The notes: generated by a model from the sequence alone, not told the origin. Counted from the first letter of the stretch, positions 2,502-39,015 are shown. The stretch is DNA of 64,000 nt from an uncultured Clostridia bacterium (GCA_944381155.1 CALWKA010000001.1:2529-66528); one strand, 5' to 3'. Program-made: numbers and translations.

Positions 2502-2513
2502 ATGGAGGATATT

Positions 2514-3398
2514 ATGAAAACAGGATTAGGTAGAGGATTAGATAGTTTGCTGAAAGTTTACGATGAAGAAACTGAAACAAAAAAGGTGGAAGAGCCAATT
2601 AATAGCTACACTATGAGGCACGGAGATGTAGAAAAAATTGATATAAATAAAATTTATACGAATCCGAATCAACCACGAAAAAATTTTGATAAAGAAAGTT
2701 TAACCGAATTAGCTGAAAGTATACGCATTCACGGATTGATTCAGCCAATAGTTGTGAATGAGATGCCAGACGGATATATGATAATTGCAGGTGAGAGAAG
2801 ATTTCGAGCTTGCAAATTGTGTGGACTAAAAGAAATTGATGCTGTAGTTAAAAATTATTCAAATAAACAAATAGCAGAAATAGCTATAATTGAAAATCTA
2901 CAAAGAGAAGATCTAAATCCTGTAGAAGTTGCCAAAGGAATTAAAAAATTGATGGACGAATATGGCTTAACACAGGAAAAAGTGGCCGAACGATTAGGAA
3001 AATCTAGATCAGCCATTGCAAATAGTTTACGAATATTGACTCTTTATCCTGAAGTCATAGAATTAATTGAAAAAGGGAAAATTTCATTTGGCCACGCTAA
3101 AATTTTAGCTGCCATAACAGACTATGCCACACAATTAATATTGGCAAAAAAGATAGCCAAAGACAAATTGACCGTAAGAGATCTTGAAAAAGAAGTAGAC
3201 TCTATTCTTGGCAATAAAAAGAAGAAAAAGATAGCAAAATTGCCAAGTGAAGAACTTCAAGATTTTATCTCAGAAATGCAAAGAAAATTAGGCACAAAAG
3301 TGACAGTAATAGGAAATGACAAAAAGGGCAGAATATACATAGACTATTATTCTCAAGACGATCTAGATAGAATATATGATGTCGTGTTACGAAAATAA
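2514..3398 (+). CDS. parB: Chromosome partitioning protein ParB/Spo0J
   Basis: The ORF track starts at 2502. The preferred start is ATG 2514 (MKTGLGRGLDSLL), after GGAGGA. ParB box IIAGERRFRA is present. Confidence 0.95.
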   Translation: MKTGLGRGLDSLLKVYDEETETKKVEEPINSYTMRHGDVEKIDINKIYTNPNQPRKNFDKESLTELAESIRIHGLIQPIVVNEMPDGYMIIAGERRFRACKLCGLKEIDAVVKNYSNKQIAEIAIIENLQREDLNPVEVAKGIKKLMDEYGLTQEKVAERLGKSRSAIANSLRILTLYPEVIELIEKGKISFGHAKILAAITDYATQLILAKKIAKDKLTVRDLEKEVDSILGNKKKKKIAKLPSEELQDFISEMQRKLGTKVTVIGNDKKGRIYIDYYSQDDLDRIYDVVLRK

Positions 3399-15525: not shown

Positions 15526-15600
15526 GCTCTCGTGGTGTAATGGATAGCACAATGGTCTTCGGAACCATTAGTTCGGGTTCGAATCCTGACGGGAGCGCCA
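15526..15600 (+). tRNA. tRNA-Arg (anticodon TCG)
   Basis: Acceptor GCTCTCG/CGGGAGC, anticodon stem ATGGT/ACCAT with loop CTTCGGA, T-arm GGTTCGAATCC, encoded CCA. Confidence 0.85.
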
Positions 15601-15603
15601 TAA
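15557..15603 (+). repeat. 47-bp direct repeat, copy 1 (tRNA-Arg from the anticodon loop through CCA plus 3 nt)
   Basis: CTTCGGAACCATTAGTTCGGGTTCGAATCCTGACGGGAGCGCCATAA is identical at 16434-16480. Confidence 0.95.
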
Positions 15604-15726
15604 AACCCTTTATTTTAGGGATATCTAGCAAATTTAGGTTTCGCTGTTTACATTACAAGAACTGATAGATTTGAAACAGAGTCAAAGATCACTTGAGTTA
15701 TTTAAAAAATCGAAGGATATAATATT

Positions 15727-16191
15727 ATGAATATAGTTTATTGCCATCATGCATAAAGAATTTTTACAGGAAGTCAAAAAGATGATATAACTGATCTAGG
15801 GAGAAAAGATGCCGAACTTGTTGGACAATTTATAAAACATATACCTAATGTAAAAGCGATTTATATATCTCATTATTTTAGATGTATAGAAACAGCAAGA
15901 ATAATAAACAAATCTCTTAATGTACCCATTATTGAAGAAGATAGGTTTAATGAATTTGTTAGTAAAGAAAACAAAGAAACATGGATTGATTTGCAAAAGA
16001 GAGTTATTGCAGGTATTAAAGATATCGTTAATAAATATAATGATGAAGATAGTATTATTTGTGTGACATCTGGTGTTAATATCGCGGGTTTTCTTGATTG
16101 GAATTTAGGACTAGAACCAAGTGAAAATATGCCATTTTTAGGAATTATTTCGTGTTCACCGGTAATATTTAAATACAATAAAAAATCATAA
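15727..16191 (+). pseudogene. Histidine phosphatase (phosphoglycerate mutase family) with an in-frame TAA at 15754-15756
   Basis: MNIVYCHHA*RIFTGSQKDDITDLGRKDAELVGQF... continues in the same frame into track ORF 15991-16191. The usual RHG catalytic motif is degraded to HHA. Confidence 0.6.
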
Positions 16192-16433
16192 GTTTATTAA
16201 ATTTAAAAGTACAATTTTTTTAGTAATTTATAAATTTTTGCAATAAAAATGCAAGATCTTTGCAAAAGGGGTGTTTTGTGTTGTATTTTTTCGTGTTTGT
16301 ATTGTATAATATTGTTTGATAAGATGAAGTGGCTAAAATGCTGATAAATAAAGGGGTTAAGGAATTTTTAATATGATATTTTATGGTAAAATATGATACA
16401 AAAAGTCGAACTCGCAACAATTGTAGGTTGCCC

Positions 16434-16480
16434 CTTCGGAACCATTAGTTCGGGTTCGAATCCTGACGGGAGCGCCATAA
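16434..16480 (+). repeat. 47-bp direct repeat, copy 2 (orphan tRNA-Arg 3' half)
   Basis: Identical to 15557-15603. It lacks the acceptor 5' strand and the D-arm. Confidence 0.95.
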
Positions 16481-24840: not shown

Positions 24841-26196
24841 TTAATATTTTAAAAGTTGAGATTTTATATCGTTTACTAGCGTTCTAATATGTGGATTGAT
24901 TTTCACTTGATTGCTGATTTTATCTCGCGCGTGCATTATGGTGGTATGATCCCTTCCGCCGAATATTGCACCGATCGCAGTGAGCGGGATGCTCAACATA
25001 TCGTTTATCAAATAGATACACAACTGTCTAGGTTCTACAATCTCTTTATTTTTTTTCTTTCCTATCAAATCTTCTTTTGACACTTTGAAGAAGTCACATA
25101 CTGTATTTAATATTTTTTCAGCATCTAGATTGGTCTTTTCTGTCTCTCCATAATCTTTAAGTGCTTCGTGCGCATCTTCCATACTCGCGTGCGACTTTCC
25201 TAACAAACTTGAATAAAATACAACTTTTGACAAAATTCCTTCCATCTCTCGAATGTTTGTACCTGTTTTTTGCGCTATGAAGTCAACCACATCTTCGTCT
25301 ACTAAATAACCTTCTTGACTACATTTCTTTTTGATAATTGCCACCTTAGTTTCATAATCTGGCTCTTGAATGTCTTGAATGAGTCCACTGCTGAATCTAC
25401 TGCGCAATCTCTCTTCTAGCGAACTCATTTCTTTTGGTGAACGATCGGACGCTATGATAATTTGTTTATTGTTTTGATACAGATCATTGAATGTATGGAA
25501 GAATTCTTCCTGAATTCCCATTTTATTGCTAATAAATTGAATATCATCAATCATCAGCACATCTACGCTACGATACTTATCTCTAAAATCGAGATTTGAT
25601 TTGTCCTTTCCACTACGAATTGAATCTACATAATCATTTGTAAACTTTTCACAAGTGACATATAATACATTCAAATCTGGCCTATGTTTGTTCAAATAAT
25701 TTCCTACAGCGTGGAGTAGGTGAGTTTTTCCTAATCCAACTCCACCGTATATGAACAGCGGATTAAACTTTTCACTAGGATGCTCGGCTACACTTTGCAT
25801 TGCTGCGCACACCACTTGATTTGATTTTCCTACCACAAAATTTTCAAATGTATACTTTTGATTGAATTTAGACTTGAAGTTGGACGAATCTTTTTCACTC
25901 ATCATTCGCTCTAACTCCTCATCCTGCTTGCGAATTGATTCTTCATACTCTTGAATGTCGGTTATTCGAACGAATGTATACGGCGTGAACTCTTGTCTAA
26001 CACATTTTGTGATTTTTTCATAAATCGCGGGCTGATTGACTTGATTTTTCGCCGTGACACTAGGTGCTTTTATAATTAATTCATCATTTGCGTATTGAAT
26101 TGGGGTTAAAGTATTGATCCATAAGTCGAATGTGACCGCCGTGACCTCGTTTTCCAACTTATTCAACACTTTTTTCCATTGATCAAGTAAAAACAT
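24841..26196 (-). CDS. dnaA: Chromosomal replication initiator protein DnaA
   Basis: 451 aa with AAA+ Walker A GGVGLGKTHLL and the domain IV motif GGRDHTTIMHA. AGGAG RBS upstream. Confidence 0.95.
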   Translation of the reverse strand: MFLLDQWKKVLNKLENEVTAVTFDLWINTLTPIQYANDELIIKAPSVTAKNQVNQPAIYEKITKCVRQEFTPYTFVRITDIQEYEESIRKQDEELERMMSEKDSSNFKSKFNQKYTFENFVVGKSNQVVCAAMQSVAEHPSEKFNPLFIYGGVGLGKTHLLHAVGNYLNKHRPDLNVLYVTCEKFTNDYVDSIRSGKDKSNLDFRDKYRSVDVLMIDDIQFISNKMGIQEEFFHTFNDLYQNNKQIIIASDRSPKEMSSLEERLRSRFSSGLIQDIQEPDYETKVAIIKKKCSQEGYLVDEDVVDFIAQKTGTNIREMEGILSKVVFYSSLLGKSHASMEDAHEALKDYGETEKTNLDAEKILNTVCDFFKVSKEDLIGKKKNKEIVEPRQLCIYLINDMLSIPLTAIGAIFGGRDHTTIMHARDKISNQVKINPHIRTLVNDIKSQLLKY

Positions 26197-26909: not shown

Positions 26910-28007
26910 ATGAAATTCAGATGTGACGGATTGGAGTTAAGCGAGGCAATTAGTACAGTATCAAAAGCTATCAGCTCAAAGACCACTTCTCAAATTCTTG
27001 AAGGAATTAAGATGGTGTGCGAGGATGACCTACTTGTTCTTACTGCAACTGACCTTGAAATGAGTGTTGAAAAAAAAATTCGAGCAGAAGTGGATTCACG
27101 CGGAGAGACGGTTGTGCCGGGTAGACTCTTCGGCGAATACATAAAAAAACTTACAAATGAACAGATTGAATGCGAATTGAATGAGAAAAATCAGTTGAAA
27201 ATTTCGTATACAGACAGCGAAGGATGCCTTCAATGTATGGATATTAGTGAATTTCCTGCAATTAAGGAAGTGAACAAGGATAATTTCTTTGAAATTACGA
27301 AAGAAAATTTCAAGTCTTTGATAAACAATGTGTTCTATGCGGTGGCGCAGGACGATAGTAGACCTATTTTGAAGGGTATTTTGATGGAAACCAATCAAAA
27401 TAATATTCGTGCTGTGGCTGTGGACGGATGTAGGCTCAGTATTTCAAACAAAAGTTTGGTTATGTCCACTAATGATTTCAAAATAATTGTGCCAGGCAGG
27501 AATTTGAACGAGATTGTAAAGATGATGAATGGGGAAGACAATGTCAAAGTTTATATCCATTCAAACAATATTATGGTGGATCTTGGGGATACGATTGTGA
27601 TCAATCGCTTGATTGATGGTCAATTTATTAATTATCGCCAGATTGTGCCAAAAGATTTTTCTACAATCGTCACAATAAATAAAGAGCAGTTGGAAGACGC
27701 CATTGATAGAGCGAGTGTGCTTTCGCGTATTGATAAAAATAATTTGGTTAAATTCGACATCAAAGAAAAGAATTTGATGCTTACTTCAAATAGCGAATTG
27801 GGCAACACGCGTGAAAATATTACGGTGGGAGTGAAGGGCAACGATCTCAATATTTCGTTCAATTCAAAATATTTTAGTGATTGTTTGCGTGTGATTGACA
27901 ATCCGTATGTGAAGATGAATTTTAATAGTCAGATTCAACCGTGCGTCATCACTCCGTCCGAAGGAGACGATTTCTTGTTCTTAATTTTGCCTGTAAAAGC
28001 AAGATAA
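26910..28007 (+). CDS. dnaN: DNA polymerase III beta sliding clamp
   Basis: 365 aa starting MKFRCDGLELSEAISTVSKAISSKTT. GGAGG RBS upstream. Confidence 0.95.
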   Translation: MKFRCDGLELSEAISTVSKAISSKTTSQILEGIKMVCEDDLLVLTATDLEMSVEKKIRAEVDSRGETVVPGRLFGEYIKKLTNEQIECELNEKNQLKISYTDSEGCLQCMDISEFPAIKEVNKDNFFEITKENFKSLINNVFYAVAQDDSRPILKGILMETNQNNIRAVAVDGCRLSISNKSLVMSTNDFKIIVPGRNLNEIVKMMNGEDNVKVYIHSNNIMVDLGDTIVINRLIDGQFINYRQIVPKDFSTIVTINKEQLEDAIDRASVLSRIDKNNLVKFDIKEKNLMLTSNSELGNTRENITVGVKGNDLNISFNSKYFSDCLRVIDNPYVKMNFNSQIQPCVITPSEGDDFLFLILPVKAR

Positions 28008-31921: not shown

Positions 31922-32008
31922 GCGGATATGGCGAAATTGGCAGACGCGCTAGATTCAGGTTCTAGTGAGAGCAATCTCATGCAGGTTCAAGTCCTGTTAT
32001 CCGCACCA
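31922..32008 (+). tRNA. tRNA-Leu (anticodon CAG)
   Basis: Acceptor GCGGATA/TATCCGC, anticodon loop TTCAGGT, long variable arm, T-arm GGTTCAAGTCC, encoded CCA. Confidence 0.9.
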
Positions 32009-32009
32009 G
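31940..32009 (+). repeat. 70-bp direct repeat, copy 1 (tRNA-Leu from the D-loop to CCA plus 1 nt)
   Basis: GCAGACGCGCTAGATTCAGG...TTATCCGCACCAG is identical at 32151-32220. Confidence 0.95.
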
Positions 32010-32028
32010 CATAAAGAAAACAGCGGAT

Positions 32029-32150
32029 GCCAATTTCGCTAATAGGGGACCCCGAAAATAGACGATGTTTTCGGGGAAAAGGAGCAAGCGAATAAAACTA
32101 AAACTTTTTGCATTCAAGCAAAAAGTGAAATAAAATGAAGCTTGCGACGC
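32029..32150 (+). other. Unclassified structured insertion module, copy A (about 122 nt)
   Basis: (1) The 5' 11 nt GCCAATTTCGC (32029-32039) are the exact reverse complement of tRNA-Leu positions 31931-31941. (2) GGGGACCCC lies at 32045-32053. (3) Hairpin 1 is CCCCGAAAA/TTTTCGGGG (32050-32076). (4) Hairpin 2 is CTTTTTGC/GCAAAAAG (32104-32125). (5) A TGAAGC motif lies near the 3' end. It is a paralog of 37798-37922. Confidence 0.7.
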
Positions 32151-32220
32151 GCAGACGCGCTAGATTCAGGTTCTAGTGAGAGCAATCTCATGCAGGTTCA
32201 AGTCCTGTTATCCGCACCAG
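32151..32220 (+). repeat. 70-bp direct repeat, copy 2 (orphan tRNA-Leu 3' portion)
   Basis: Identical to 31940-32009. It is followed by a terminator-like hairpin, AAACGAACCTT...AAGGTTTGTTT (32230-32276). Confidence 0.95.
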
Positions 32221-32338: not shown

Positions 32339-33391
32339 TTATAATGTGTTGTGATGGCAATAAGGGCAACCTGGTGCTAAATTTAAGTTATAATTTTTAA
32401 CAATCTTTTCTGATTTGGTCAAGACATTTTCAAGAAATTTTGTCGATGGTTTTGTTCCAATATTGTTGTACGGCACATATGGGGAAAGCACAGGCATAGC
32501 ACCACACTTGCAAATTTCTTCAACACCTTTCAAAGAAGATTGCAAACTTTCTAAGCCTATAATAATGCCAGACCTAACATTTTGCGTTCCAAAAACTTTG
32601 CTTGCAAGTTTTAAAAAGTAAAAATAATTTTCCCTGCCTATATTAAATTTTTCTCTACAATATTTTTCACATATTTTTTTATCATAAAGCTCCAAGTTAA
32701 TTGACAGCCCTCCAACACCAAAACTTTTCAAAAGTTTTAGATATTCAAGATATTGAGATGTGTCGGGGTAAGAATCAAAACCGCGTGGCGTCATCATAAC
32801 ATCAAAAGAATATTGTGGATATTTCTGGCAAAAAAATTTATATACCTCTGTTAAATATTTTAAATCACACTCTTTAGGACTTCCGCCTGTTATTAAAACA
32901 TGTGTGACACGATCATCTTTCAAATGCACCTGAAGACATTTATCTAAATCCTCAATGCTATTTTTTGTGTATTTAATGTTATTTAGTGTGCAAAATGCGC
33001 AATGATTGTTGCACCCTCCAATAGGCGAAATGCGTGTTCTATCAAAATGAGTGGCTGCAATTGGAGAGGAAAGCAATTTGCTTTCTTCCTTTGAAATTTT
33101 GTTTTTAATATAAGACCTTATTGGTTGCCAAACTTCAACTTTAACTTCTTCGTTATTGAATTTCAAAATCAAATTATTGTTAATTAAAGTTAATTTATAT
33201 ATAGACTCTTTATTTAAGTCGCTTGTCACATAAAAATTATTTCCCAGCACCAACATAATCCCAGTTGTTGTGACATAGTCATCATTATAAAATTTTTCCC
33301 CAAATCTTTTTTTTAAATAGTCAAGAGCATCTTTTTCAATATTAACACCATTAACCATAAGTTCAATTTTAAGTTTTTTCAATGAAATCAT
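32339..33391 (-). CDS. Radical SAM protein with an N-terminal extension of about 120 aa
   Basis: CX3CX2C motif GGCNNHCAFC (Cys127/131/134 by my count). C-terminal PGCPYCHH. Its start overlaps the upstream ATP-grasp stop codon (ATGA). Confidence 0.75.
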   Translation of the reverse strand: MISLKKLKIELMVNGVNIEKDALDYLKKRFGEKFYNDDYVTTTGIMLVLGNNFYVTSDLNKESIYKLTLINNNLILKFNNEEVKVEVWQPIRSYIKNKISKEESKLLSSPIAATHFDRTRISPIGGCNNHCAFCTLNNIKYTKNSIEDLDKCLQVHLKDDRVTHVLITGGSPKECDLKYLTEVYKFFCQKYPQYSFDVMMTPRGFDSYPDTSQYLEYLKLLKSFGVGGLSINLELYDKKICEKYCREKFNIGRENYFYFLKLASKVFGTQNVRSGIIIGLESLQSSLKGVEEICKCGAMPVLSPYVPYNNIGTKPSTKFLENVLTKSEKIVKNYNLNLAPGCPYCHHNTL

Positions 33392-34374
33392 TTTATCACC
33401 CCTTTTATTGCCAAATTAATTTGTCTGTCAAATAAAGTTTTTTTATGTTTTTCAGACAATTGTTTATTAAGTTGCATTGTTGATGTTTGAAATCGAGCAT
33501 TAATTTCCATAAAATAAAAAGTGTCTTTCACCAAAATATAGTCTATTCCGCACACCCCTCGATAGCCAATTTGTTTCAAATATTCTCCAATACCCTTTGA
33601 TTCAGTCAAAATCTTATTTGAGATTTCTTTTGAGATATTATAGTCCGCTCCATCATAACACATTTTGTCACTTGTCTTGTTTATAATCTGCTGTGATGGT
33701 GCAAAATATTCCACAAAATCATTGTCAACAAACAAATGAATATTATATGATTTACAATTTTCCTGTAAAACAGAAATGCAATATTTCTTATGTTTTTTTA
33801 TTAGTTTCAATTGATTTTTTAAATTTTCTTTTGTAAAAATAAATGTATTTTCACCTGCAAAACCATATTCTTCCTGCACAACAAAACTTAAACTAAATGT
33901 TTTTTTATTTTGCCATACCTTTAGAAAATACTTTTCTAATTCCACTCCTAGCAAAAACTTATAATCAAGGATGTTTGTGTATGGCTTTAAATCTTCTCTT
34001 ATTTTAAACTTGTTATTTACATAATCGTACATTGAATATGTATTAACACTTAATATATGGTATTTTTTTAAATTATAACCTTTCAAATTATGCTCGTTAT
34101 ATCTCAAAAAATAAGCATCTTTATCTTTTTTCAACACCATTTTAACTGCTTCAATAAAAAATTTGTCAATTCTCTTTAAGTCAGAAATTTTGTTGTAATC
34201 AATTCTTTCGTCTGGATATAAATCAGAAAAACAGATGTTATTTTTTGTTTCAAACCGGCGTTGAACGGTGATTGAACCAAGGAAATTGTTTTCTGATTGT
34301 AAAATTAAATCATTAATACCAATAAAATATATATTCATAGATTCATCCTTACATATTTTAACATTATTATACAT
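33388..34374 (-). CDS. ATP-grasp family protein
   Basis: 328 aa. The C-terminal GVCGIDYILVKDTFYFMEINARFQ resembles the ATP-grasp Mg/ATP-binding region. Confidence 0.6.
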   Translation of the reverse strand: MYNNVKICKDESMNIYFIGINDLILQSENNFLGSITVQRRFETKNNICFSDLYPDERIDYNKISDLKRIDKFFIEAVKMVLKKDKDAYFLRYNEHNLKGYNLKKYHILSVNTYSMYDYVNNKFKIREDLKPYTNILDYKFLLGVELEKYFLKVWQNKKTFSLSFVVQEEYGFAGENTFIFTKENLKNQLKLIKKHKKYCISVLQENCKSYNIHLFVDNDFVEYFAPSQQIINKTSDKMCYDGADYNISKEISNKILTESKGIGEYLKQIGYRGVCGIDYILVKDTFYFMEINARFQTSTMQLNKQLSEKHKKTLFDRQINLAIKGVIK

Positions 34375-34505
34375 TATAAATTATAAAACTCAAAATTAAT
34401 TTTAAAAAATTTTTAACAAAAATTAATATCGAAGTGTATTCCACAAGTGTCCAACTTTTTGGGTTCACCCAAGTTCACTTTCCGCGTCCTTATTTTTGAA
34501 TTTTT

Positions 34506-35213
34506 CTAAATAAATGATATATTGATATCACCATTGTTGCAATCGGCAATCAGATGCTTTGTGCCGTCAAGTTTTTCTGCGGGCAAATTTGAGTTTCCCT
34601 TTTTTATGGTACAATCAATTGAATAATCACCAATGTCTCCAACGATTGTGCCGACTATGCTACCATTTTTTGTCTTTAAGTCGATAGTAGAATCTGCTTG
34701 CACTGAATTTAGCTGGATATCTCCGCCATTCGATTCAAGCGCGAGATTGTTTTTGATTGAAATTTCAGTTAATTCAATGTTTTCATTCGTCGTGCTGACC
34801 GTTAGATTAGTTAAAAGATTGTTTGGAATTTCAATGATAATTTCTCTATATTCGCTGTCCGCCTTCACGCCTATGCGGTCGATCCAAGATTTTTCATCCA
34901 CAAATTGAACATTCAATCTTTTGTTTGATATAGATATATCAATCTTTTCTTTTTCGCTTTCAAAATAATTGATATGTATTTGATCGTCACTAGATGATAG
35001 AATTTTTATTTTCCTATCTCGAACATCTATGTTTATATTTTCAATTTTGGCGATATGACAAGCGTATGTTTTTTCGCTAAATGTTCCCGCACCTATTACG
35101 CCATTGAAAGATAAGATCAATAGAGTGGCAATCACTGCGATAACGATCAACACGAGTGAGATAATGATAAGTTTAGTTTTTTTCATACTTTTCTCCTTCA
35201 ATTTACTTGACAA
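34506..35213 (-). CDS. Membrane-anchored beta-repeat protein (DUF4097 / LiaG-like putative adhesin)
   Basis: N-terminal TM helix, then repeated motifs of the type NGGDIQL, KNGSIVG and NNGDINI. The start may be the internal MKKTKL. Confidence 0.55.
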   Translation of the reverse strand: MSSKLKEKSMKKTKLIIISLVLIVIAVIATLLILSFNGVIGAGTFSEKTYACHIAKIENINIDVRDRKIKILSSSDDQIHINYFESEKEKIDISISNKRLNVQFVDEKSWIDRIGVKADSEYREIIIEIPNNLLTNLTVSTTNENIELTEISIKNNLALESNGGDIQLNSVQADSTIDLKTKNGSIVGTIVGDIGDYSIDCTIKKGNSNLPAEKLDGTKHLIADCNNGDINISFI

Positions 35214-35284
35214 TAGTTTTTATTGCCATTATCATCAGTATAAACCTTTGTGTAACACAAAAGTCAAGGAGAAAATTCAAATTT

Positions 35285-36070
35285 ATGGAAAAATTTTTCA
35301 CAATCAGCAAAATGGCAAAATTGGTGGGGACGACGAGCGAAACTTTGCGCCATTATGACCGCATTGGACTAGTTAAACCTAGCAAATTAGACGAATGGAC
35401 GAATTATAGATATTATACGAGTCAGGATATTGTGCGTCTGAATACGATAAAAGCTTTGCAGTTTATGGGTATGTCGCTAAAAGATATTAAACAAATTCTA
35501 AATTCACAAGATTTTTTTGAAATCGTCAGTTTTTTAGACGAAGCGCTGATTTCAGCGGATAAAAAAATCAACGAACTGAATTTGGCAAAATCAAAAATTG
35601 AAAGAGCAAAGAACTTTTATGCTAGCAAGATGGGTGAGGATGATAAATCTGAAGTGGTGTTTATTCAAGAGATTGAAAAACGCACCATTTTAATTTCAAC
35701 CACACTCACGCAAGCCAATATTGATAATTTGTTTGATTATCATAGGCATTTTTATCTTCAATTAGGCAATGAAAAATCAAACGATTTTCTATTTGAAGAC
35801 AGAGCGGGCATATATTCGGACGAATTGGGTAGCCATTTGTTTGCCATTTGCACAAAATTTAGTGAAGATAAAAATTTGATTTGCTTGCCAAAGGGGAAAT
35901 ATTTATGCGCAAATTGTATTGAAAAAAATCGCGCCAATGTGCGCGATAGACTGCTAAATATAGCAAAAGAGCAATATCATATCACTCCAAAATTTGTGCT
36001 AGAGATGATAAATCTGACGGGCATATTGAAATGGAACTATCAAATACAAATATATTTGGAAAATATTTAA
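35285..36070 (+). CDS. MerR-family transcriptional regulator with a C-terminal effector-binding domain
   Basis: HTH FTISKMAKLVGTTSETLRHYDRIGLVKP. The preferred start is ATG 35285; the track starts at 35207. Confidence 0.8.
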   Translation: MEKFFTISKMAKLVGTTSETLRHYDRIGLVKPSKLDEWTNYRYYTSQDIVRLNTIKALQFMGMSLKDIKQILNSQDFFEIVSFLDEALISADKKINELNLAKSKIERAKNFYASKMGEDDKSEVVFIQEIEKRTILISTTLTQANIDNLFDYHRHFYLQLGNEKSNDFLFEDRAGIYSDELGSHLFAICTKFSEDKNLICLPKGKYLCANCIEKNRANVRDRLLNIAKEQYHITPKFVLEMINLTGILKWNYQIQIYLENI

Positions 36071-37125: not shown

Positions 37126-37543
37126 AAATTTTCCTCCAATATTAAACTGGTCAAAAATCTATAAAAAATTTATTCAATACAAAATTAGTTAAAATATCAA
37201 AAATTTTGACAAACTTATCCAACATTTGAATTTGTGGTAAGTCCGTTGTTTAAAAGGTCGAATCTTAATATTTACAAAAAAATACATAAAGACAAATATT
37301 GAATTTAGAAAAAACATAATAGAAAAAAGTTTATAAAATTGTATATTTGGAATTTTGTTGAGAGTTATGAAAGGCTATTCAACATATATTCTGCCGTTAG
37401 TTTTAAAAACATATTTTAATCGATATAGGAAATTCAAATGTTGGTTGATTTTAGTAAATATCAAGTTTTTTGAAAAGATAAATTGAAAACACTTTACAAA
37501 TCTTTCATTTTAAAGCATAATAAAGTCTGTAAAAGGAGAAAAA

Positions 37544-37795
37544 ATGATAGAATTTAGATATGATACTCAACTTCTTATCGAAGGCAAGAATTTGGACGAA
37601 GATAAGATTCGAGACTATTTTTTGAAGAATTTTAAGGGAGATTGCTTAATTGCGGTGGGAGATAGCGAACTGATTAAAATTCATTTCCACACAAACGAAC
37701 CTTGGGATGTGTTGAAATACTGCGCAAGTTTAGGCGAAATTTGCGACATCGTCGTCGAAGATATGGACAGGCAATCTCGCGGACTGAAAGGCTAA
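37544..37795 (+). CDS. Small protein resembling an internal segment of DAK2-fusion protein YloV (possible gene remnant)
   Basis: 83 aa. GDCLIAVGDSELIKIHFHTNEPWDVLKYCASLGEICDIVVEDMDRQ parallels my recollection of the Bacillus YloV segment GDSLLVIADEDLAKVHIHAEEPG...IKIENMREQ. GGAG RBS upstream. Confidence 0.5.
   Translation: MIEFRYDTQLLIEGKNLDEDKIRDYFLKNFKGDCLIAVGDSELIKIHFHTNEPWDVLKYCASLGEICDIVVEDMDRQSRGLKG
37765..37794 (+). repeat. 30-bp direct repeat, copy 1 (3' end of the 37544 ORF)
   Basis: GGACAGGCAATCTCGCGGACTGAAAGGCTA is identical at 37923-37952. Confidence 0.95.
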
Positions 37796-37797
37796 AA

Positions 37798-37922
37798 CCA
37801 TATCTTCGACGACAAAAGGGGACCCCACAATTAATGAAAAAATTGTGGGGGAGGCTGAATAATCAAACAAAAGCGAAGTATGTGACGAAGGAGCATACGA
37901 GAAAGAGTGCAGATTGTGAAGC
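37798..37922 (+). other. Unclassified structured insertion module, copy B (about 125 nt)
   Basis: (1) The 5' 16 nt CCATATCTTCGACGAC (37798-37813) are the exact reverse complement of 37751-37766. (2) GGGGACCCC lies at 37818-37826. (3) Hairpin 1 is CCCCACAATT/AATTGTGGGG (37823-37850). (4) Hairpin 2 is GTATG/CATAC (37878-37898). (5) It ends in TGAAGC (37917-37922). Confidence 0.7.
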
Positions 37923-37952
37923 GGACAGGCAATCTCGCGGACTGAAAGGCTA
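37923..37952 (+). repeat. 30-bp direct repeat, copy 2
   Basis: Identical to 37765-37794. The next base differs, giving TAG here versus TAA in copy 1. Confidence 0.95.
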
Positions 37953-38009
37953 GAAGAAAGTTTTAAACAAATAAAATAAAAAATAAGTTAAAATAAAGGA
38001 GAAAATTTT

Positions 38010-38660
38010 ATGGATATTATGACCAAAGGTGAAGGTTATTTAGATTTCACACCAGATATAATTAAACTGCATTTTGATTTTCGTATTAGGGCAAAAGAAT
38101 ACAATATGGCGGTAGAAAATGGCGTAAAGACGGTCGAATCTTTTGTAAAACTATTGCAAAGTTTAGGATTCAAAAAGGAAGATTTCAAAACACATTCATT
38201 CAGAGTATATGAAGAAACGAAATATGATTCAATGAGAAAAAAGGATGTTAGTTTAGGCTTTGCATACAATCAAAATTCGAATTTGAAATTTGACTATGAT
38301 ACCATCAAACTTGCGCAGTTGATGACAGCGATCAGCAAGTTTAAAGACAGTCCACGAACCGAGATCAGATTTGAATTAAAAAATCCAGACGGGGCAAAAT
38401 CTCAATGTATTGACCTAGCGTACAAAAACGCAAAATCAAAAGCGCAGGCAATAGCAAAGAGCGCGGGAAAGAAATTGAAAGAGTGCGTAAAAATCAGTTA
38501 CGAGCCATTTGAGGCTAGCGTTCAATCAAAATCTGATTTTGGCGGATTGTCTAAGACGGGTATTAATGGTCTACAATTAGATAGTGCAATTGAAAATGTG
38601 CTAGTGCCAGAAGATATTGAAATATCTGAAGAATTGTATTGCCTATTCATTGCAGAATAG
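38010..38660 (+). CDS. SIMPL/DUF541-family protein (no obvious signal peptide)
   Basis: 216 aa with the family-like segment AKSKAQAIAKSAGKKLKECVKISYE. Paralog of 36439-37125. Confidence 0.55.
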   Translation: MDIMTKGEGYLDFTPDIIKLHFDFRIRAKEYNMAVENGVKTVESFVKLLQSLGFKKEDFKTHSFRVYEETKYDSMRKKDVSLGFAYNQNSNLKFDYDTIKLAQLMTAISKFKDSPRTEIRFELKNPDGAKSQCIDLAYKNAKSKAQAIAKSAGKKLKECVKISYEPFEASVQSKSDFGGLSKTGINGLQLDSAIENVLVPEDIEISEELYCLFIAE

Positions 38661-38812
38661 AGTAGTTTATTTTAAATTTCCCACTTTTTAAATTGTTAAT
38701 ATGAAAAAATCAAGTGGAAAGCAGAAGAAATCAAATAGACGACACATAGACGATAAAAATTTGGTAAAAATATGTAGAATTGTGGCTATTTGATTTTTTT
38801 GTTTGTTAATTA

Positions 38813-38841
38813 TTGACAATAGTTCAATAATTTGTTATCAT
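38813..38841 (+). promoter_or_regulatory. rpmH operon promoter (TTGACA-17-TATCAT, with a TG extension)
   Basis: TTGACA at 38813-38818 and TGTTATCAT at 38833-38841. Confidence 0.55.
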
Positions 38842-38877
38842 AATCTAGTACAATTATAATAAATTAAAAGGAGAATT

Positions 38878-39015
38878 ATGAAACAGACTTATCAACCAAA
38901 GAAAAGACAACGCAATAAAGTTCACGGTTTCAGAGCGAGAATGAAGACTTTGTCGGGCAGAAAGGTTCTTAAAAGGCGTAGAAACAAAGGGAAAAAGAAT
39001 TTGACTAACAATTAA
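38878..39015 (+). CDS. rpmH: 50S ribosomal protein L34
   Basis: Below the ORF-track length cutoff. Manual translation gives [52 protein letters not shown] upstream. It precedes rnpA. Confidence 0.95.

Follow-up and report, generated by a model that had tools for sequence, protein, structure and literature searches.

Modules at the 3′ ends of a mini-gene and a tRNA gene

We analyzed a window of 64,000 nucleotides (nt) from an uncultured Clostridia bacterium (GCA_944381155.1 CALWKA010000001.1:2529-66528), in which a short structured module, here called module B, occupies the 3′ end of a mini-gene encoding a stand-alone 83-amino-acid (aa) protein related to the middle domain of FakA. A sister, module A (31922-32220), lies 5.6 kb away at a tRNA-Leu(CAG) gene and was found by a direct-repeat scan. 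At the mini-gene, a perfect 16-bp inverted repeat formed by GTCGTCGAAGATATGG and CCATATCTTCGACGAC (16/16 positions complementary, 31 nt between the arms) encloses in its loop the last nine codons (DRQSRGLKG) and the TAA stop codon (37793-37795) of the open reading frame (ORF), just as an earlier reading, made from the sequence alone, had described. That sequence-only reading had also reported a 30-bp duplication of the gene tail in which TAA becomes TAG; the duplication and its altered stop codon are real, but the repeat is 33 nt long with one mismatch, and the stretch between its copies measures 125 nt (37798-37922), as had been stated. Perfect inverted repeats of at least 16 nt with a loop of at most 100 nt occur twice in the window and in none of 30 block shuffles, and a 29-mer from the tail occurs exactly twice in the window, against 0 expected from 100 shuffles. 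Four parts make up the 158-bp unit: an extra gene tail, 2 nt of spacer, an antisense arm of 16 nt (L′), and a core of about 108 nt with two hairpins (Table 1).

Folding of the core of module B gives a minimum free energy (MFE) of -61.9 kcal/mol (z = -7.0). Cores from different species are only 44 to 59% identical, and their helices are kept: across 13 distinct sequences, 88% of cells are paired (32 to 42% in slid controls), 16 of the 23 pairs have changed on both sides, and the observed score is matched by none of 500 shuffles, a result with which RNAalifold agrees. G-U pairs are frequent in the core helices and would be A-C mismatches on the other strand, so that the structure belongs to the + strand, which is the sense of the host gene. 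Secondary structure on the + strand is what the core conserves; the compensatory changes, together with the G-U pairs, indicate RNA or, at the least, this particular strand. When all five lineages are combined in a covariance model, the window contains just two matching sites, 32041-32151 (86.8 bits) and 37814-37923 (86.5 bits), and the next best scores 12.8.

The first of these two sites is the core of module A. Its host is the only complete tRNA that ARAGORN calls in the region, and it is flanked by the same kinds of repeat: a 17-nt inverted repeat that is 88% complementary (12 perfect pairs, a 2-nt mismatch, and 3 pairs) and a 70-nt direct repeat that is 100% identical at a spacing of 211. 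Core A runs from TAATAGGGGACCCC and a hairpin through the linker GGGGAAAAGGAGCAAGCGA, nearly identical to the linker of one of the related species described below (sp4), to a second hairpin and GCTTGCGACGCG; it folds at an MFE of -43.7 kcal/mol (z = -5.2) into the same architecture as core B. It aligns along its whole length to the mini-gene cores, with 54% identity to core B. Both modules follow one design rule, in which a conserved core is preceded by a 5′ antisense copy of the 12 to 17 nt that precede the duplicated segment and followed by a 3′ sense copy of the 3′ part of the target. Since the same layout of core, arm, and tail recurs at tRNA-Leu, the rule is not specific to the mini-gene.

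Several other features of module B were considered and set aside. An internal ORF starting at ATG 37834 does acquire the C-terminal residues DRQSRGLKG in the window, as had been noticed, but the frame is no gene: among the 14 same-species contigs that contain and fully span the module, 11 have a 1-nt indel (GGGG for GGGGG, 37846-37850) that cuts it to 7 codons. An overlapping 83-aa frame (37702-37953) likewise has a frameshifting indel in most strains, and neither frame has a Pfam match. Two further resemblances, the 8-mer GCAATCTC common to both duplicated tails and the likeness of the 3′ strand of the core (TTGCGAC) to the gene's ATTTGCGAC, were judged coincidental, since other species and the tRNA locus keep neither.

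Table 1. Features of modules B and A and of their host genes (all on the + strand where a strand is given)
Feature	Position	Strand	Basis
Module B and its host gene
Promoter-like site upstream of mini-gene, TTTACA-17-CATAAT	37493-37521	+	consensus scan only
Host gene, intact stand-alone 83-aa FakA-like middle-domain mini-protein	37544-37795	+	PF21645, TIGR03599, family-wide conservation including tail
L, left arm of helix P1, inside coding sequence (codons V V E D M + G)	37751-37766	+	pairs with L′
X1, gene tail, direct-repeat copy 1 (DRQSRGLKG, TAA, AA), loop of P1	37765-37797	+	direct repeat
158-bp presence/absence block, placement within repeat arbitrary	37772-37929	+	strain comparison
L′, 16-nt arm antisense to L, joined directly to core 5′ end	37798-37813	+	16/16 complementarity
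Core: AAAAGGGG, hairpin HP1 (37823-37850), purine-rich Shine-Dalgarno-like linker, long irregular hairpin P3 with inner hairpin HP2 (37854-37922)	37814-37922	+	folding, covariance model
X2, gene-tail copy 2 (GGACAGG...GGCTAGAA), then native downstream DNA	37923-37955	+	direct repeat
Module A and its host gene
Host gene tRNA-Leu(CAG)	31922-32008	+	Rfam 54.7 bits; ARAGORN
L(A), left arm, tRNA D-arm region	31931-31947	+	inverted repeat with 32023-32039
X1(A), tRNA positions ~19 to end plus G, direct-repeat copy 1	31940-32009	+	70-nt direct repeat
Spacer, 13 nt	32010-32022		
L′(A), arm antisense to tRNA D-arm region, directly 5′ of core	32023-32039	+	inverted repeat
Core A (HP1 32050-32076; P3/HP2 32081-32148)	32041-32150	+	covariance model, folding
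X2(A), truncated second copy of tRNA 3′ part, then native trailer	32151-32220	+	direct repeat

Variation among strains and related species

Within the species, the unit is present once or not at all, and contigs of both classes encode an identical protein. Two contigs, L082 and L085, lack the 158-bp block; every other same-species contig that spans the site has it. In the empty alleles the gene ends ...GATATGGATCGACAATCTCGCGGACTGAAAGG[C/T]TAG and leads directly into native downstream AAGAAAGTTTT. In filled alleles the upstream tail copy, X1, always ends GGCTAAAA, an element-type ending (TAAAA), and the downstream copy, X2, always ends GG[C/T]TAGAAGAAAG, which is the native ending and shows the C/T polymorphism of the empty alleles. 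X2 always begins GACAGG, synonymous with native GATCGA (Asp-Arg, 4 differences in 6 nt), and X1 begins with either GATCGA or, as in this window, GACAGG, depending on the strain; the direct repeat is accordingly 33 nt here and only 20 to 24 nt elsewhere. An element-type tail upstream and a native-type tail downstream are the topology of a tail-bearing unit recombined into the tail, that is, of a Campbell-type single crossover. X2 differs from the native tail by synonymous codons only, both in this species (GACAGG against GATCGA) and in a related one, sp3 (GATAG. against GACCGC), and thus behaves as a usable spare tail. The sequence-only reading had proposed that the junction between inverted and direct repeat is a rearrangement breakpoint; it is a real boundary, one edge of the 158-bp block, though no truncated YloV arises there.

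The flanking haplotypes of the two empty alleles differ, and each is also found with filled alleles, whose modules carry variants specific to the haplotype. The best reading of the empty alleles is accordingly that the unit was deleted precisely, through the repeat, on two separate occasions, and their different haplotypes imply recurrent precise loss or gain. The 158-bp unit explains the strain-level indels and assembly gaps at these loci: scaffold gaps (N runs) in L089, L137, and L140 lie exactly inside module or tRNA repeats, and since short-read assemblies break at tandem units, the true copy numbers there may be higher.

Three related species with the same gene neighborhood (SIMPL gene, mini-gene, ..., rpmH-rnpA-yidD-yidC) carry diverged modules of one to two or more tandem units. 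We refer to the species of the window as sp1 and to the others as sp2 (loci L089-L094 and L135), sp3 (L134), and sp4 (L136-L139). All share one order: gene, tail, spacer, an arm antisense to the V-V-E-D-(M) codons, AAAGGG, HP1, purine-rich linker, P3/HP2, and a second gene end. Within it, the spacer between tail and arm varies (2, 3 to 4, 38, or 41 nt across species), as does the number of units: L090 and L139 have a single unit without a second tail, L136 has a single unit with a degenerate terminal tail, and L089, L137, and L138 have two or more tandem units with a period of 159 nt in sp4 and about 195 nt in sp2. The point at which the repeat starts also differs between species, with the same architecture.

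The arm tracks its host gene through this divergence. L′ always matches the host sequence immediately 5′ of the duplicated tail and follows the synonymous codon changes of the gene across the four species: GTCGTCGAAGATATGG faces CCATATCTTCGACGAC in sp1 and sp2, GTTGTCGAAGAC faces an L′ of GTCTTCGACAAC in sp3, and GTTGTTGAAGATATGG faces an L′ of CCATATCTTCAACAAC in sp4. Over eight P1 helices from the four species, 97.7% of cells are paired; three pairs have changed on both sides, at codon third positions, and one has become G-U. Module B is limited to these four close species and varies among them, so that it is not the unchanged arrangement in distant relatives that would have marked an ordinary conserved 3′ untranslated region (UTR). 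In 80 other species we found neither module nor gene-end repeats within 1.5 kb downstream of the mini-gene, and the downstream region is unrelated among these sampled species. In sp4 the mini-protein ends in RGQKG or RGHKG, against RGLxG throughout the family, which would fit replacement or conversion of the gene tail by a copy from the module.

The mini-gene family and the surrounding window

The host ORF matches the Pfam model of the FakA-like middle domain (PF21645, 3.9e-19) with residues 3-79 at profile positions 1-78 of 80, and the YloV model TIGR03599 with residues 2-80 at model positions 221-298. Full-length YloV/FakA proteins have about 550 aa and comprise Dak2 (DhaL), middle, and C-terminal domains; here only the middle domain is present, and it is complete. 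In a pairwise alignment with full-length FakA (PDB 7w7h), similarity stops at Q77, which bears out the earlier statement that likeness to YloV ends near DMDRQ. The idea that the mini-ORF is a truncated yloV does not survive, since an 83-aa family with the same tail is widespread and alleles without the block encode that same tail. A protein database search with the ORF returned 7113 matches, the best 120 of which are all 70 to 100% identical to it, mostly 83 aa long, and aligned through the same tail. Among GTDB species genomes, scanned at one genome per species, at least 583 mini-gene loci occur (Lachnospiraceae, Oscillospiraceae, Erysipelotrichaceae, Peptostreptococcaceae, and others), a lower bound. 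All examined GTDB loci end in ..EDM[DE]RQxRGLxG and a stop, and the RGLxG tail is kept also in many species without any module. Homology to the mini-protein family thus continues through SRGLKG, and profile matches extend to residue 79 or 80; the boundary at Q77 is a property of an old and widespread mini-protein family and not of this locus.

Members of this stand-alone family share a length of about 83 aa, PF21645 as the only domain, the RGLxG tail, and invariant residues C34, H47, H49, and C60, which could be a zinc site, and the ORF has all of these. Synonymous sites vary freely between species, so that the constraint acts on the protein. The mini-protein is very strongly conserved (80 to 100% identity) across metagenome-assembled genomes of Clostridia, Erysipelotrichales, and Bacilli, in unrelated genomic contexts, and a literature search on it found nothing. 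Variants with internal partial duplications occur on short metagenome contigs (P0001 and P0109), one of 138 aa that repeats the first ~55 residues and one of 96 aa that repeats ELIKIHFHTNE; these may be assembly artifacts or real tandem duplications.

We found no terminator-like site in 37300-38900, including the interval between the mini-gene and the next gene (38010), and HP1 is followed by GAGGCUG rather than by the U tract that, with a GC-rich hairpin, defines an intrinsic terminator. Because the mini-gene has a promoter-like site ahead of it and nothing terminator-like up to the next gene, module and host probably share a transcript.

Searches for the modules outside this lineage, in collections that hardly sample it, found no copy. 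Only three tRNAs and a SAM riboswitch in the window reach the gathering threshold of Rfam 15, and an E-value search of both modules up to E = 10, over families that included ribozymes, riboswitches, omega/HEARO RNAs, RAGATH motifs, and others, assigned no family (best non-tRNA matches, E ≥ 0.5). Viral contigs held no copy by three patterns and the covariance model; BLAST of both modules against phages and plasmids gave nothing, or 35-nt AT-rich chance matches; the covariance model found nothing significant in 97 other-species loci (457 kb); and the arm-plus-core junction gave 11 chance matches in Joint Genome Institute (JGI) metagenomes, none beside a mini-gene. Cas and TnpB genes were not found among the scanned window ORFs. 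Readings as a diversity-generating retroelement (DGR), retron, IS110, IS605, or CRISPR-associated transposon were rejected on the lack of any reverse transcriptase, recombinase, TnpB, or Cas gene in the same ORFs and on the wrong repeat geometry; for a DGR in particular, the differences between copies are T/C, C/A, and A/G, all synonymous. A 384-aa ORF upstream of the tRNA module, considered as a candidate enzyme, has no family matches, and its N-terminal signal-peptide-like segment with a cysteine suggests a lipoprotein. Among 88 ORFs downstream of the mini-gene in the 80 species, no recombinase is found among the 25 most-matched Pfam families; these ORFs are housekeeping genes, and the 3′ end of the mini-gene is not a common integrase site. 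A large serine recombinase near the mini-gene of another species (P0008) targets the neighboring tRNA rather than the mini-gene: its element lies at the 3′ end of the tRNA just downstream (L122 and L124), and L125 is the empty site.

Elsewhere in the window, a 47-nt direct repeat (15557-15603 and 16434-16480, spacing 877 bp) starts in the anticodon loop of a tRNA (15526-15597) and brackets degraded coding sequence, with no arm or core of the module family; 15526-16480 looks like an ordinary integrase-type island remnant. A perfect 16-bp palindrome, TGTTCCACGTGGAACA, occurs three times (1770-1785, 2247-2262, and 2486-2501) in the AT-rich region upstream of ORF 2502-3398, and these look like putative operator sites for a regulator. 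Between the two modules, a cluster at 32339-36070 (radical SAM, ATP-grasp, DUF4097, and MerR genes) is swapped in other same-species strains for a GH43 glycoside hydrolase beside the SIMPL gene (loci L081, L082, L087, L088, and L114), and the segment is therefore accessory. Gene order around the replication origin (16563-41570) is unusual: the - strand carries dnaA (24841-26196), and the + strand carries mnmE-mnmG-rsmG, recF, dnaN (26910-28007), and, about 11 kb beyond dnaN, rpmH-rnpA-yidD-yidC-jag.

Origin and possible role of the modules

We somewhat favor reading the modules as a family of small, non-autonomous, ORF-less insertion or duplication elements at the 3′ ends of conserved genes. 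By a similarly slight preference, we see in the inverted repeat and the direct repeat two parts of the design of a single structured module that occupies a gene's 3′ end without damage. The family and its rules are well supported within the available data and apparently undescribed; its mobility is supported by two targets, the mini-gene and tRNA-Leu, from which we infer that it moved between targets at least once.

A minor share of our expectation goes to a lineage-specific cis-regulatory 3′-UTR RNA that arose in place, in which P1 would sequester the stop codon or stabilize the 3′ end of the mRNA, the direct repeat would be a side product of local tandem duplication, and the tRNA copy would be a paralogous trailer structure and no sign of mobility. 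It accommodates the covarying + strand structure, the co-orientation of module and host gene with no terminator between them, and the occurrence of the module at one locus in all four related species. Pairing of 16 bp around a stop codon could plausibly, moreover, influence termination or RNase III processing. Such a helix has a parallel in arfA-type control, where RNase III cuts a hairpin in the mRNA and so takes off the stop codon. The likeness is confined to P1 as a long perfect helix with coding sequence that encloses the stop codon, and the same helix design recurs at a tRNA gene where no stop codon is involved. Having no stop codon to sequester, the tRNA gene weakens any purely gene-specific regulatory explanation: a homologous core with the same arm and tail-duplication layout at a non-translated gene is left unexplained, as are the dispensability of the module in some strains and the species differences in spacer length (2 to 41 nt) and repeat start, and at the tRNA P1 would compete with tRNA folding. 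We consider it very unlikely that the modules are non-functional mutational by-products with incidental structures, an inverted repeat from fold-back template switching joined to a slippage duplication. Template switching does create perfect short inverted repeats, replication slippage does create tandem duplications, and copy number does vary. Set against this are the same composite layout and homologous core at two unrelated genes, a structure conserved at only 44 to 59% sequence identity, and an inverted repeat kept perfect through three independent synonymous substitutions; the second locus, at tRNA-Leu, essentially excludes a one-off mutational accident. Least credible, and in our view almost certainly wrong, is that the mini-ORF is a yloV/fakA fragment truncated at the junction and given a foreign SRGLKG tail. 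The alignment to FakA that ends at Q77 and the reality of the junction as an indel boundary agree with it; an 83-aa protein with this exact tail, 80 to 100% identical across hundreds of species without the module, contradicts it, as do block-less alleles that encode the same protein and profile matches that reach residue 79 or 80, and the conservation excludes mini-genes elsewhere being pseudogene fragments.

It is also unlikely, though less so than these last two, that the modules are decayed integrase-dependent islands (attL, remnant, attR) of which about 125 to 140 bp were left after internal deletion, with tandems formed by accretion. The closest described objects are indeed integrase-less, attL/attR-flanked remnants such as cis-mobilizable elements (CIMEs), which lie at the 3′ ends of tRNA or conserved protein genes (PMC5704250). 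Like CIMEs, the modules have direct repeats of the host 3′ end, an element-borne tail that restores the gene, tandem accretion, and no recombinase gene inside; together with element- and native-type ends and a degenerate distal repeat, these are typical of site-specific integration, and the window holds a conventional remnant at tRNA 15526-15597, with its 47-nt repeat. CIMEs, however, span kilobases, whereas the modules are uniformly tiny (125 to 140 bp), at both loci and in all four species. No cognate tyrosine or serine recombinase was seen among the scanned window ORFs or among the 25 leading Pfam families downstream of the mini-gene. Double-stranded att arms are not expected to keep hairpins through compensatory changes and G-U pairs, as the core does in its single-strand secondary structure, and they offer no role for a target-complementary arm of 12 to 17 nt that lies beside the core, 31 to 75 nt from its partner, and tracks synonymous changes. 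The tRNA repeat, finally, begins in the D-loop, to our knowledge not a usual sublocation for integrases.

Other small elements differ from the modules in how their ends relate to the target. REP, BIME, REPIN, Correia elements, and miniature inverted-repeat transposable elements (MITEs) are small non-coding repeats behind genes that are co-transcribed as hairpins, and like the modules they are short, ORF-less, structured, strain-variable, placed at gene 3′ ends, and presumably non-autonomous. They have fixed terminal inverted repeats, target duplications of 2 to 9 bp, and ends independent of the target; module flanks, by contrast, are target-derived and locus-specific, with an inverted copy of 12 to 17 nt and a direct copy of 30 to 70 nt or more (duplications of 33 and 70 nt here), and 64 kb hold only two copies that are 54% identical. 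Guide-bearing mobile RNAs, namely group II introns with their pairing of exon- and intron-binding sites (EBS/IBS) and the bridge (seek) RNAs of IS110/IS1111, share with the modules a structured element RNA, part of which is complementary to target sequence directly 5′ of the insertion point. In bridge RNAs, a second segment matches the opposite strand on the far side of that point, an arrangement that L′ and X would parallel. The modules differ in having no ORF, no ribozyme-sized intron, no intron-encoded protein, and no DEDD recombinase (nor is there a DEDD gene among the scanned window ORFs), and in their long target duplications: bridge-RNA guides are 4 to 9 nt in internal loops, their integration leaves only a 2-nt core repeat, and group II introns interrupt the target without duplicating it.

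Several points weigh against an element family. Just two targets are known, separated by 5.6 kb in a single genome, and because their cores are only 54% identical, any movement between them must be old. Recent insertion is not evident, given that by haplotype comparison the empty alleles resemble deletions, and vertical inheritance of module B in the four species is possible, in which case selection on an RNA helix would be enough to explain why L and L′ match. Transposase, integrase, and reverse transcriptase were not found among the scanned window ORFs, no copy was found outside this lineage, in collections that hardly sample it, and the covariation rests on five lineages with a 13-sequence alignment fitted to the model.

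On the + strand, the parts follow one another as host gene with L, X1 (the tail with its stop), a short spacer, L′, the core of about 108 nt, X2, and native downstream DNA. If the modules are elements, as we favor, L′ would fold back on the host gene transcript into a 16-bp helix around the stop codon, and the duplicated tail would keep the host gene intact. The tail repeats could also provide homology for amplification by unequal exchange and for the precise deletions that yield empty alleles, with the compact hairpins bringing the repeats together as in hairpin-stimulated slippage. New copies might arise in one of three ways. L′ may be a targeting guide on one strand and X on the other, by a logic like that of bridge RNAs or intron EBS/IBS pairing; both may be copied from the target at insertion, through staggered breaks and short snap-back synthesis, and L′ and X would then always match without selection and junctions would differ between species; or the insertion may be ancient, with L and L′ simply retained as an RNA helix. 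We also entertain, as a tentative and distinctly less probable proposal, that the core is the scaffold of a new ORF-less RNA-guided homing element, whose arm selects the target and whose tail pairs with the other strand and replaces the gene end while an enzyme acts in trans. The arm of 12 to 17 nt on the core's 5′ end would pair with one strand just 5′ of the insertion point, a reverse transcriptase, recombinase, or nuclease encoded elsewhere would mobilize the unit, and swapping arm and tail would retarget it from a protein gene to a tRNA gene.

Even on a modest interpretation, the modules define a new motif of structured RNA without an Rfam counterpart, which builds a helix together with host coding sequence or with a tRNA body, and they draw attention to a strongly conserved, uncharacterized 83-aa mini-protein of Bacillota with a zinc-site-like set of residues. 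If the design rule holds genome-wide, it would represent a hitherto undescribed strategy by which a very small non-coding element settles in conserved genes without harm, and the target-matched arm would be a candidate for nucleic-acid-guided site choice, of interest for programmable insertion.

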